The notes beneath the pieces are model-generated. The model saw only the letters and a program-made list of their open reading frames with translations. It did not search any database and was not told the DNA's origin. Below, one piece after another: positions 18,912 to 22,194 of a stretch of 32,848 nucleotides of DNA. The position numbers and the translations under genes were made by a program. This DNA comes from Patescibacteria group bacterium (lineage in GTDB: Bacteria; Patescibacteriota; Minisyncoccia; Phycocordibacterales; UBA2100). Each line of letters begins with the position of its first letter. Position 1 is the first letter of the stretch. The DNA is taken from assembly GCA_024654485.1 (NCBI GenBank), contig JANLHO010000049.1, positions 1-32,848 of the forward strand, read 5' to 3'.

Positions 18912-18956
18912 TAGTGAGGAACGAAAATGGAAGCTTGCTTTCATTTTCTCCGAACG
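18912..18956 (-). repeat. 45-bp tRNA-abutting element, copy 1
   Basis: CGTTCGGAGAAAATGAAAGCAAGCTTCCATTTTCGTTCCTCACTA; 44/45 identical to 20110-20154; ends exactly at tRNA base 1. Confidence 0.9.
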
Positions 18957-19018
18957 ACGGGTTTATATCGTGAGATATAAGCCCGTGCGCAGAAATATAC
19001 CAGATACGGGAGCCGCGC

Positions 19019-19752: not shown

Positions 19753-19815
19753 CGGGCTGTAGTATACCTCGGTAGCACAACGCTTCGCGTTGGCTACGGG
19801 GCAAGCCGGTAGTAC
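19753..19815 (+). pseudogene. 5' fragment of a tRNA-Pro(GGG)-like gene, interrupted in the D-loop by a palindrome
   Basis: CGGGCTGTAGTATACC (identical to 20155-20170), insertion, then CCGGTAGTAC. Confidence 0.8.
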
Positions 19816-19851
19816 TTTACAAGACGTGGCGTGAGTGGGGGGTTCTTTTGC

Positions 19852-20027: not shown

Positions 20028-20109
20028 CAGAGCCTCTGAGAAAGTATTTATGCGGTGCAGAATCATTTTCGTTCCTCACTACGGGCTGTAAGCAAGCTTT
20101 CAGCCCGGG

Positions 20110-20154
20110 CGTTCGGAGAAAATGAAAGCAAGCTTCCATTTTCGCTCCTCACTA
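20110..20154 (+). repeat. 45-bp tRNA-abutting element, copy 2 (partial third copy at 20064-20081)
   Basis: 44/45 identical to the reverse complement of 18912-18956; ends exactly at base 1 of tRNA-Pro(GGG). Confidence 0.9.
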
Positions 20155-21322: not shown

Positions 21323-21394
21323 GCCTCCATCGTTCAACGGATAGGACGCGAGCTTCCGGAGCTCGTAATGTGGGTTCGATTCCTGCTGGAGGCA
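21323..21394 (+). tRNA. tRNA-Arg(CCG)
   Basis: Acceptor GCCTCCA/TGGAGGC, anticodon arm CGAGC-TTCCGGA-GCTCG, T-loop GGTTCGATT. Confidence 0.93.
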
Positions 21395-21417
21395 CAAGAT
21401 ATCGTTTGCCTCTGCTG

Positions 21418-21442
21418 GCTACAAGCTGTAAGCTACAAGCTA
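21418..21442 (+). repeat. heptamer tandem array GCTACAA/GCTGTAA
   Basis: GCTACAA GCTGTAA GCTACAA GCTA, just before the tRNA-Ala pseudo-copy. Confidence 0.7.
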
Positions 21443-21447
21443 TCCTA

Positions 21448-21559
21448 GGGCCTATAGTATAGCGGTACCCGCCCGAACGACTGACGTCGTTCAGTCGGGC
21501 GGGGAACGCCTCCACCCGCCCGAACGTACCGTTCGGTACGGGCGGGTGGCATGGTGGAG
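21448..21559 (+). pseudogene. duplicate of the 5' 44 nt of tRNA-Ala(GGC), interrupted by two palindromic insertions
   Basis: GGGCCTATAGTATAGCGGTA [36 nt, 21468-21503] GAACGCCTCCA [32 nt, 21515-21546] TGGCATGGTGGAG. With the insertions removed it is 43/44 identical to 21796-21839. Confidence 0.9.
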
Positions 21560-21562
21560 CCT

Positions 21563-21805
21563 ATGGTATACACAGTCTACGTCTTGAAGGACGATCTAAA
21601 CAGGTTGTATAAGGGTATGACGAAGAATCTCTCTGGCCGTATCGCTCAACACAAGAATGGCCATACGATAACCACAGCAAAAATGAAGAATTTGCGCGTT
21701 GCATATACCGAGGAATTTGATAACTTTGAGGGCGCAAGGAAGCGCGAATTGTATTTCAAATCTGCAGCGGGCAGGCGTTTTCTGAAGAAAAAACTGGGCC
21801 TATAG
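21563..21805 (+). CDS. stand-alone GIY-YIG nuclease (UPF0213/YhbQ-like), 80 aa
   Basis: YTVYVL...LYKGMTKNL..RIAQHKNG...T.K...YTEEF....ARKRELYFKS..GR. The stop codon lies inside the downstream tRNA. Confidence 0.92.
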   Translation: MVYTVYVLKDDLNRLYKGMTKNLSGRIAQHKNGHTITTAKMKNLRVAYTEEFDNFEGARKRELYFKSAAGRRFLKKKLGL

Positions 21806-21866
21806 TATAGCGGTAGAACGCCTCCATGGCATGGAGGAGGTCGGGGTTCGACTCCCCGTAGGTCCA
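21796..21866 (+). tRNA. tRNA-Ala(GGC)
   Basis: Acceptor GGGCCTA/TAGGTCC with G3:U70, anticodon arm CCTCC-ATGGCAT-GGAGG, T-loop GGTTCGACT. Confidence 0.93.
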
Positions 21867-22194
21867 CAAAAATAAGGAGAACATCCCGAAGCGATTAATC
21901 TTCGCACGCGGCGCGTGCGTGGTGGCTTTGTACTCTGCCTCACGATTCGACTTCGTGCCGACTCTCTCGGGCGCGCGAGTACGCCACGCCCTCGGCCCCC
22001 GCCCCGCCGCCAATCCTCTCCGCCAAAGGCGGACAGGCATTCTCATCTATTTCGCGGGGGGATTTGAAAAAAGGAATGGGCGGCAGGAGGCAGGGTCGGC
22101 TTCCATTCTCGAAAATTAAATTCTAGATTCGGTGTCTAACACGGGGCCCACTATTAGTGACGAATGTGATATATAAAGTATAATGACACCCCAT

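Follow-up and report, generated by a model that had tools for sequence, protein, structure and literature searches.

In fungal mitochondria, free-standing open reading frames (ORFs) for LAGLIDADG or GIY-YIG endonucleases, known as mobile ORFs (mORFs), are inserted in essential genes, for instance atp6 of Allomyces macrogynus and atp6, atp9, cox2 and nad3 of Glomus (PMC3630166). A duplicated segment keeps the invaded gene intact and the displaced copy lies beside the ORF; the two copies can differ in origin, and the ORF may lie in phase with the gene that hosts it (PMC3630166). Here we analyse a comparable arrangement in a bacterium. The stretch studied, called the window below, comprises the 32,848 nucleotides (nt) of contig JANLHO010000049.1 (assembly GCA_024654485.1) from a Patescibacteria group bacterium. 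The element in question is a cassette in which an ORF of 80 amino acids (aa), encoding a GIY-YIG nuclease, lies between a hairpin-interrupted copy of the 5' part of a tRNA-Ala(GGC) gene and the intact gene. In the best-supported reading, this cassette may be seen as a bacterial, tRNA-based mirror image of the fungal mobile endonuclease ORFs with their duplicated host-gene segment.

Both arrangements combine an endonuclease ORF with a replacement for part of the host gene, the native part being left as a duplicate. An endonuclease ORF between functional and displaced copies of part of an essential host gene was found in the window, in 16 of 22 tRNA-adjacent cassettes of the Candidatus Kaiserbacteria genus (hereafter the genus), and at 9 of 13 loci from other lineages. 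Unlike the mORFs, the cassette resides in a bacterium, and its host gene is a tRNA gene rather than a protein gene. As a rule, it is the 5' part that is displaced, and it stands upstream of the ORF, in mirror image; the protein is a bare 80-aa catalytic domain, and the displaced copy nearly always carries GC-rich hairpins. Paquin et al. reportedly described, in 2000, GC-rich double-hairpin elements that accompany such ORFs in Allomyces.

A looser relative is SegB of phage T4, whose GIY-YIG gene lies among tRNA genes; the enzyme cleaves the tRNA region of a relative and drives the inheritance of its own gene and of flanking markers (PMC2330249). The likeness to the cassette is that of a free-standing GIY-YIG gene in a tRNA cluster, but SegB is phage-borne and has two domains, and no partial tRNA duplication or hairpins are noticeable in the accessible part of its description. 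SegB is about 220 aa long.

In size and fold, the window protein resembles the UPF0213 or prokaryotic Slx1-like proteins (BH0048, EF2693; YhbQ type), which a survey of the superfamily describes as minimal GIY-YIG proteins without auxiliary domains and of unknown role (PMC1564403). The survey also mentions one fusion of a prokaryotic Slx1-like domain with a TrmH tRNA methyltransferase, for which Dunin-Horkawicz et al. (2006) suggested a role in RNA metabolism (PMC1564403). Catalytic residues and the restriction to the catalytic domain are also shared, but sequence similarity to the solved UPF0213 members is weak (E 0.28). In the literature searched, we found no biological role, tRNA linkage or mobility described for this family, nor any account of minimal GIY-YIG cassettes beside tRNAs; the search did not extend to subscription journals or supplements.

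Short GC-rich dispersed palindromes are known from the REP/RAYT systems and from the Rickettsia palindromic elements. Much as in REP/RAYT, the palindrome families described below appear to go with particular enzyme clades and flank the enzyme gene; here, however, the enzyme is a GIY-YIG nuclease and not a Y1 (HUH) transposase, the elements measure 20-36 nt and the link is correlative. As with the Rickettsia elements, most copies are in frame within protein genes, but they are far shorter. Integrase-borne islands and prophages also target tRNA genes and restore them through a duplicated segment; unlike the cassette, they extend over kilobases, carry a recombinase gene and duplicate the 3' end of the tRNA.

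The window belongs to a 0.82-Mb metagenome assembly of 60 contigs with 44 tRNAs, which we designate G000; other G numbers denote genomes of relatives, L numbers the loci inspected and C numbers contigs. Its cassette is made up as follows, with the upstream neighbour given first.

21323..21395, plus strand: tRNA-Arg(CCG), upstream neighbour (ARAGORN; Rfam RF00005, 54.5 bits; synteny in 10 loci)
21448..21467, plus strand: 5' fragment block 1, tRNA-Ala(GGC) nt 1-20 (100% identity to 21796-21815, repeat family D3)
21468..21503, plus strand: 36-nt palindromic micro-element at the D-loop position, after nt 20 (DNA hairpin fold)
21504..21514, plus strand: 5' fragment block 2, tRNA-Ala nt 21-31 (sequence reading; k-mer match at tRNA position 21)
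21515..21546, plus strand: 32-nt palindromic micro-element in the anticodon loop, after nt 31 (DNA hairpin fold)
21547..21559, plus strand: 5' fragment block 3, tRNA-Ala nt 32-44 (sequence reading)
21563..21805, plus strand: 80-aa minimal GIY-YIG nuclease ORF (Pfam PF01541, E 9.6e-11)
21796..21867, plus strand: intact tRNA-Ala(GGC) (ARAGORN; Rfam, 58.1 bits)

The fragment blocks were read by eye, with the help of repeat family D3, because the insertions made MAFFT misalign the fragment with the tRNA. Block 1 begins exactly at tRNA position +1. Block 3 has a single mismatch, T for A at 21555, and holds a GGAG (21556-21559) 3 nt before the ATG of the ORF, as well as an alternative in-frame ATG at 21551. 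At its other end, the ORF shares its last 10 nt with tRNA-Ala nt 1-10, so that the final codons read CTG GGC CTA TAG and the stop is the tRNA's own TAG. The tRNA-Ala(GGC), which has a G3:U70 pair and ends at 21867 according to ARAGORN and at 21866 according to Rfam, is the sole Ala-GGC gene that ARAGORN found among the 44 tRNAs. An exact 20-mer repeat within 350 nt, followed by two further collinear blocks, is far above chance. The ORF is placed exactly between a 5' tRNA piece and the complete, single-copy tRNA of the same isoacceptor. Both insertions fold as DNA hairpins: the 36-nt one at −15.9 kcal/mol (z −5.0; 0 of 200 shuffles equally good), the 32-nt one at −12.0 kcal/mol (z −2.8; 3 of 200).

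A previous sequence-only reading of the window had described a direct repeat of tRNA-Ala(GGC) nt 1-44 around the ORF, and we recovered it as three collinear blocks with one mismatch and two palindrome insertions. Its statements that the first 10 nt of the intact tRNA supply the ORF's end and stop, and that the upstream copy supplies the GGAG before the ATG, were likewise borne out. So was the statement that the window contains no integrase or transposase: none occurs among the Pfam matches of its 31 ORFs, 28 of which were scanned at E≤1e-5 and 3 at E≤0.01. Seven of the 28 had no Pfam family at the stricter threshold; the other window ORFs are housekeeping genes according to Pfam. A sigma-70 scan, uninformative for this lineage, found no promoter-like site upstream of the fragment or the ORF, and one weak terminator-like site within the ORF was no better than those in shuffled sequences.

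The predicted protein matched PF01541 over residues 3-70 with 42.3 bits (cut-off 22.6; E 9.6e-11) and no NCBIfam model. Y6, Y16, G18, R26, H30, E62 and K66 are invariant among 17 tRNA-adjacent homologues; we take these to include the GIY tyrosine, the YIG tyrosine, the catalytic arginine and the metal-binding glutamate. The AlphaFold (AF2) model, with a mean confidence (pLDDT) of 93.3, has strands at 3-9, 15-20 and 45-52 and helices at 23-31, 55-66 and 68-78, a three-stranded sheet with flanking helices that matches solved GIY-YIG domains. The first Foldseek hit was 1zg2 (UPF0213 protein BH0048; E 3.7e-4), and ranks 2-5 include Slx1 (TMq 0.68-0.70); At-HIGLE was also among the best solved look-alikes, whereas UvrC came only at rank 20 and I-TevI only at rank 39. 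By sequence, the best solved match was 1ywl, with the weak E value of 0.28 already mentioned. According to Pfam and the model, the entire protein is catalytic domain, with no separate DNA-binding domain. An analogy with the nuclease of Penelope-like elements, drawn in the sequence-only reading, received no support, the fold being closest to the structure-selective nucleases UPF0213, Slx1 and HIGLE.

Among 12 ORFs of the closest clade (66 pairs), the mean proportions of non-synonymous (pN) and synonymous (pS) differences were 0.28 and 0.83, and the ratio of the corresponding rates (dN/dS) was 0.08-0.25 where dS was finite. These values indicate that the protein is under purifying selection, with synonymous sites saturated, and the ORF is predicted to encode an intact minimal GIY-YIG nuclease of the UPF0213/Slx1 type. 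It falls outside the two-domain family of GIY-YIG homing enzymes, and may still work like a homing gene.

How often do such genes adjoin tRNAs? In the own genome, PF01541 gave 10 matches, namely 7 small ORFs, one frame of UvrC size and a broken C9 copy that counts as two matches, and tblastn added one GIY-YIG fragment on C21. Six of the nine small loci (the 7 small matches, the broken C9 copy and the C21 fragment) lie at most about 500 nt from a tRNA; tRNAs with 500-nt margins make up about 6% of this genome. On C27 the layout of the window's cassette is repeated on tRNA-Ser(GCT), the broken C9 copy is flanked by repeats of the tRNA-Asn 3' end, and one copy on C21 lies between tRNA-Met and tRNA-Asp.

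Across the genus, PF01541 matches were present in 41 of 41 genomes searched, with 1-8 in each. A census of 11 genomes, picked beforehand for contiguity, yielded 41 matches; 7 of them were followed by a co-oriented tRNA at a distance of 60 nt or less, and 8 had a tRNA no farther than 150 nt away. The chance expectation is about 0.15%, and co-oriented abutment (7/41) is therefore far above it, in line with the enrichment beside tRNAs that the sequence-only reading had made a point to check. When only the best match to the window protein was taken from each genome, 12 of 29 were within 150 nt of a tRNA and 9 abutted one. In a tree of 89 proteins, inferred quickly with IQ-TREE from few alignment columns, 7 changes account for tRNA adjacency versus 16.6 in shuffles, none of 500 shuffles being as low. 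Clades also track tRNA identity (Ala 5/5, Glu/Gln 3/3, Ser-GCT 2/2).

The architecture recurs with the position. Among the 22 tRNA-adjacent cassettes of the genus, 16 have a recognisable 5' tRNA fragment that starts exactly at +1 behind the native upstream flank, and 19 have one or two GC-rich hairpins of 16-40 nt, mostly within the fragment at loop-encoding positions (after nt 7, 12, 20/21, 31 or 35). The ATG of the cassette ORF follows the fragment by 0-15 nt; in L053 and L110 it is created within the anticodon loop. Many cassettes take their stop codon from the tRNA, as had been read in the window: TAG at tRNA nt 8-10 (U8-A9-G10) in all five Ala-clade copies of the genus and in the Asn cassette, TAA at nt 13-15 for Glu, and TAA after the anticodon for Met. 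As a strict rule, that hairpins always interrupt the fragment is ruled out by the uninterrupted 34-nt fragment of G064.

A search with an alignment of five Ala-clade sequences, which biases the cross-lineage sample towards that clade, gave the 13 further loci mentioned above. Nine are canonical, two are mirrored, the intact tRNA preceding the ORF and a partial or hairpin-interrupted copy following it, and two have no fragment. They are labelled Saccharibacteria, Paceibacteria, Doudnabacteria, Adlerbacteria, Uhrbacteria and Minisyncoccia, with one metagenome-assembled genome labelled Bdellovibrionales and four Bacteroidota. The cassette layout is also seen in the genome assembly of an isolate, Salegentibacter sp. 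R32. A homologue of the Salegentibacter ORF is present in 30 of 81 Flavobacteriaceae genomes, and at 18 of these 30 best loci a co-oriented tRNA lies within 70 nt (13 abutting downstream, 5 upstream). Between them, Patescibacteria and Flavobacteriaceae thus have related ORFs in this tRNA-adjacent position at over ten tRNA species. The proposal that homologues sit at tRNA 5' ends with palindrome-bearing partial 5' duplicates, and at different isotypes, was found to apply systematically in the genus and in other lineages, the isotypes being Ala-GGC, Ala-TGC, Glu, Ser-GCT, Ser-GGA, Ser-TGA, Asn, Met, Leu, Phe, Asp, Arg and Pro.

Some loci have peculiarities of their own. In G064 (L129:1185-1500), a third, unrelated GIY-YIG lineage lies 5' of tRNA-Ala(TGC) and ends on the tRNA's TAG; its uninterrupted 34-nt fragment represents yet another allele. 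The Ala clade, L036 and L129 thus make three GIY-YIG lineages at one tRNA species. Beside the cassette of G014 (L084:1041-1133, cassette orientation), a tRNA-Glu(TTC)-like gene, called by ARAGORN as a 93-nt 'Gln', has a 20-nt tandem duplication of nt 17-36 and is either a damaged gene or an assembly error. Downstream of a cassette in G013 (L071:1764-1987), a group I intron interrupts the anticodon loop of tRNA-Asn (Rfam RF00028, 55.6 bits, gathering score 50); L105 has a similar break after CTGT, possibly of the same kind, with no Rfam match.

Comparison of relatives points to a mobile element. At the window's locus their gene order is prs, tRNA-Arg, tRNA-Ala(GGC) (synteny, 10 loci). Empty alleles, in which tRNA-Ala follows tRNA-Arg, had been suggested as something to look for in relatives; they were found in G011 and G015, with the two tRNAs 40-50 nt apart. 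Six other genomes carry an unrelated gene for a Cys-rich membrane protein at this place. For the cassette of G014 the empty site is G041, where a yerC-like gene precedes tRNA-Ala(TGC). Presence is therefore polymorphic, with sites empty in G011, G015 and G041 versus occupied in G000, G059 and G014. In G010 the tRNA-Arg/tRNA-Ala(GGC) site is filled by a 248-aa ORF (L004:1291-2034) with a motif, LYLAEGSK, reminiscent of LAGLIDADG; a LAGLIDADG endonuclease received no support here, Pfam giving only a weak HTH_SB match below the cut-off.

The ORFs most similar to that of the window's cassette (67-69% identity) adjoin tRNA-Ala(GGC) in G059 and tRNA-Ala(TGC) in G014, G043 and G066. Outside the genus, the same protein clade (58-75% identity) is found on tRNA-Phe, tRNA-Asp and tRNA-Arg(CCG), and these loci carry a fragment of the local tRNA together with the same palindrome family. 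Fragment and adjacent tRNA are of different alleles in G059, G014 and G064, and of the same allele in G000 (43/44). In G059 the fragment is identical (40/40) to the tRNA-Ala(GGC) of G015 and comes with the upstream leader of that allele, the adjacent intact tRNA being of a different allele. The G014 fragment is of the type of G021 and G000 (38/39), and the intact tRNA beside the ORF matches those of G041, G022, G089 and G009 at 100%. This pattern in G059 and G014 suggests recombination or co-conversion.

The fragments are not old neutral relics, because the synonymous sites of the ORFs are saturated and yet the fragments are nearly identical to live alleles; they are either renewed by recombination or constrained. 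The upstream copy can thus no longer be taken as a simple decaying relic, given its near-identity to live alleles, the mean pS of 0.83 in the ORFs and the foreign alleles. Broken or ORF-less versions do exist (C9; L074, with a TAG stop; L115; L123; and a remnant at the window's tRNA-Pro), and such stages of decay are expected in the life cycle of a homing gene. The remnant was recognised from repeat families D4 and D6 and by eye:

19753..19851, plus strand: probable ORF-less remnant upstream of tRNA-Pro(CGG)

Its parts are tRNA-Pro nt 1-16, an insertion of 37 nt with a hairpin, 10 nt matching the D-arm (CCGGTAGTAC) and a final 36 nt before the intact tRNA, with no ORF left.

Two sharply different sequence types of tRNA-Ala(TGC) divide the genus about in half: among 116 genomes, about 43 have a tRNA at least 89% identical to the G000 type and about 50 one at least 84% identical to the G014 type. 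In the loci read, tRNA-Ala(GGC) had this two-type pattern too. We rejected the notion that the tRNA-Ala(TGC) type found beside cassettes always travels with them, the roughly 50 of 116 genomes at or above 84% identity being mostly without an Ala-clade ORF. Some single tRNA genes also change orientation from one species of the genus to another while their neighbours are conserved: tRNA-Arg(CCG) with respect to prs in L005, L008 and L017 against L001, L002 and L011, and tRNA-Ala(TGC) with respect to ddl in G000 (C46:5957-6033) against L054. A Val-Pro-Pro cluster flips too.

The palindromes have a distribution of their own. Copies of the 36-nt family in G000, G014 and G059 differ by 1-2 nt, and the D-loop site is also occupied by an insertion in G014, G043, G066, L110, L111, L116, L117 and L118. 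The 32-mer recurs, identical but flipped, at the same anticodon-loop site of the G059 cassette, with identical copies in G014, G043, G006, L110 and L117 and a one-mismatch copy on C9. This variant is 100% identical across several Patescibacteria lineages and occurs mainly in non-coding or tRNA-fragment contexts, the exception being L140, within a possibly spurious open frame of 140 aa.

By a search for the terminal motifs, the palindrome family was counted in G000 (4 copies), G014 (10), G059 (4), G043 (1), G006 (3), G064 (1) and G046 (1), and was not detected in the other 54 of 61 genus genomes, four of which matched only unrelated hairpins. It was present in 4 of 4 genomes of this sample with the Ala-clade nuclease versus 3 of 57 without it (G006, G064 and G046); Fisher's test gave about 7e-5, which is overstated since the genomes are related. 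Most copies lie in genes: 17 of 20 copies examined were within long open frames. The CCCGCCCGA..TCGGGCGGG palindromes, of 30, 33 or 36 nt, are mostly in frame, in either orientation, and add 10-12 residues of the PARP..SGG or PARTTD.VQSGG type, as in recA of the own genome (C11:18247-18282), L132-L153 and L051:572-607. The same site of the Cys-rich membrane protein was hit in G014 and G059. Hairpin families differ between nuclease clades and are shared within a clade. A 20-nt hairpin is common to cassettes of Kaiserbacteria (L059, L105) and of Flavobacteriaceae, with 21 copies in Salegentibacter sp. R32; all 7 copies sampled from four Bacteroidota genomes were away from any tRNA or GIY-YIG gene. 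The palindromes are therefore independent dispersed micro-elements, for which the interrupted fragment is at least a tolerated landing site. The sequence-only reading had suggested that the cassette may generate or spread the palindromes of this tRNA cluster, and that the insertions could shield the duplicated site from self-cleavage; we treat both as conjecture. The palindromes co-occur with the nuclease clade (4/4 versus 3/57), and they are not specific to tRNA clusters (17/20 in open frames). That the nuclease mobilises them is a tentative and rather doubtful proposal.

Taken together, the evidence leads us to think that the unit is probably a selfish, homing-type, free-standing nuclease gene cassette resident on tRNA genes. 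That it is a selfish mobile cassette of some sort we hold with good confidence; homing-type break repair as its way of spreading is a serious candidate that falls somewhat short of our assent. It appears to be a widespread selfish element in two bacterial phyla, apparently undescribed so far.

In the mechanism that we propose, the resident promoter of the tRNA would also drive transcription of the ORF, and RNase P would cut the ORF apart from the tRNA. The nuclease would break cassette-free tRNA genes, recognised by sequence or through cruciform or cloverleaf DNA structures, and the break would be repaired from a cassette-bearing copy, with the 5' fragment as left homology arm and the intact tRNA as right arm. 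Repair would copy the ORF in and might co-convert the tRNA allele. The tRNA would stay functional, which would lead the host to tolerate the cassette, and the cassette could not be deleted together with the adjoining tRNA, since this is the host's only copy. The 30-36-nt palindromes would be separate mobile micro-elements that land in the redundant fragment, as insertions are harmless there; by splitting the direct repeat and any target site they would stabilise the cassette, and they may be mobilised by the same nuclease. Carried further, this becomes a two-component selfish system, in which tRNA-anchored Slx1-like nucleases would act on hairpin or cruciform DNA, copy the cassette, mobilise the 20-36-nt palindromes and replace tRNA alleles. 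We offer this extension as speculation, with less belief in it than doubt. If true, it would mean that palindromes are inserted in frame into protein genes such as recA, and that imported alleles replace resident tRNAs, a source of tRNA gene turnover across Patescibacteria and Bacteroidota.

Several observations weigh against the selfish homing cassette. About 80% of the small GIY-YIG genes in the genus do not adjoin tRNAs, a tRNA lies within 1.5 kb of only 3 of the 30 best Pfam-scoring loci, and the protein tree contains large clades not associated with tRNAs. Because most copies and large clades lack this link, the family as a whole is not tRNA-bound, and the tRNA habit is limited to only part of the small GIY-YIG family. 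The layout also varies: the 34-nt fragment of G064 has no hairpin, and L036 and the C21 copy of G000 have no fragment. The protein lacks the DNA-binding domain that I-TevI and SegB use for site recognition, and strong purifying selection also fits a host function. The intact tRNA, and thus any target within it, persists beside the ORF; how the cassette escapes its own nuclease is unexplained in the window, where fragment and tRNA are of the same allele (43/44). The direction of allele replacement is ambiguous, both alleles being common in the genus, and the cassette-linked tRNA-Ala(TGC) type is also found in many genomes without a cassette. Related genomes are non-independent samples, and we infer cleavage, mobility and the link between nuclease and palindromes from comparisons of sequence.

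Some of these points would suit a gene that serves its host, namely a domesticated structure-selective nuclease for repair or nucleic-acid processing, co-transcribed with tRNAs for the sake of its expression, the fragments being by-products of a general tendency of tRNA loci in these genomes to rearrange. Such a role would agree with the low dN/dS (0.08-0.25) and invariant catalytic residues, with a family found in 41 of 41 genus genomes and mostly away from tRNAs, and with the other partial tRNA duplications of the own genome that have no GIY-YIG gene (Phe, His, Glu, Ile, Arg). The Slx1-like/TrmH fusion, with its suggested role in RNA metabolism, points the same way (PMC1564403). A host role agrees poorly, however, with patchy presence at syntenic sites, broken copies, several divergent paralogues on different tRNAs within one genome, one protein clade on different tRNA species in different lineages, and fragments of foreign alleles with an exact +1 placement and a borrowed stop codon; we consider it unlikely. 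Improbable as well, in our judgement, is a recombination cassette without homing. Here a circle made of the ORF and tRNA nt 1-N would enter by a Campbell-type single crossover, which the nuclease at most stimulates, and leave by recombination between the two direct repeats. It is established in recombination genetics that a single crossover with a 5' internal fragment yields a truncated copy with native flank, the insert and a complete copy, exactly the order seen; moreover, the repeats are direct and up to 44 nt long, and hairpins that split them would lower excision. What this explanation does not predict is that fragments match the local tRNA even when the ORF clade is on a new tRNA species, and it leaves the mirrored arrangements with an intact upstream tRNA unexplained. 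Nor was any circle or circle junction seen, in contigs that did not reach the ORF.

Partial tRNA duplicates are a hallmark of integrative elements, and in the own genome many tRNAs are followed, after 130-460 nt, by a 15-22-nt duplicate of a tRNA 3' end, so that one could think of a tRNA-targeting island or prophage of the integrase type that has lost its recombinase. Yet it is the 5' part that is duplicated here, and nothing but one ORF of 243 nt is inserted; the Pfam matches of the 31 window ORFs comprise no integrase or transposase, and the compact layout recurs in dozens of genomes with no recombinase within 1.2-1.5 kb, as judged by inspecting the ORFs of the loci. We give this origin very little credence. 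A chimeric join or collapsed repeat in the metagenome bin would be a still more trivial cause, and the 60-contig metagenome assembly invites the thought; none of the public runs contains this organism, the best sharing 0.14 of sampled words, and the contigs compared (X1, X2, X3 and X5) reach only the two tRNAs and the two palindromes and bridge no junction. Against such an artefact stand the recurrence of the architecture, in other sequences, in 16 or more independent genus genomes and in other Patescibacteria classes, the layout in the isolate assembly of Salegentibacter sp. R32, and an intact ORF under selection; we regard it as extremely improbable.

Few small genes without an explanation are as common in bacterial genomes as those for stand-alone GIY-YIG proteins (UPF0213, Slx1-like). 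The selfish cassette offers a testable lifestyle for part of this family: a gene of about 250 nt that sits on an essential single-copy tRNA, keeps it intact by partial duplication and borrows its transcription and stop codon. It could also account for pseudo-tRNA fragments and for the rearranged or inverted tRNA genes of these reduced genomes; how short palindromes came to be inserted in frame in core proteins is a further feature that it might explain. The occurrence in Flavobacteriaceae, including the isolate Salegentibacter sp. R32, makes cleavage and inheritance experiments feasible, unlike in uncultured Patescibacteria, and a nuclease so small that recognises the structure of a tRNA gene or hairpin would interest enzymologists.

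Other repeated sequences were noted around tRNAs. AGCT-rich short tandem motifs (GCTACAAGCT and similar) recur directly upstream of tRNAs or tRNA fragments at several loci, namely window 21396-21447, G000 C59:1-100, and L075 201-309 (oriented view), upstream of its tRNA-Glu. A second, non-coding element family lies upstream of tRNAs at window 18912-18990 (minus strand, beside tRNA-Ala CGC) and 20079-20154 (before tRNA-Pro GGG), and in L002, L005 and L051. It consists of a 9-nt copy of tRNA nt 1-9 and an insert of about 65 nt, containing GTTCGG(A/G)GAAAATG, a hairpin, CATTTTC and CTCACTA, followed by the intact tRNA, and looks like a miniature element inserted at the 5' end of the tRNA with duplication of a 9-nt target.

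Finally, many tRNAs of G000 have a direct copy of 15-52 nt of their own 3' end 130-460 nt downstream (C9:7627-8309, C49:4754-4922, C50:1985-2166, C54:20403-20531, C21:11502-11692, C21:12701-12895 and C34:3149-3312). The DNA between tRNA and 3' copy is rich in hairpins, and is partly common to C9 and C49 and across species (L013, L067). On C21, the 3' copy of tRNA-Met ends in CCA, whereas the gene itself has no encoded CCA.

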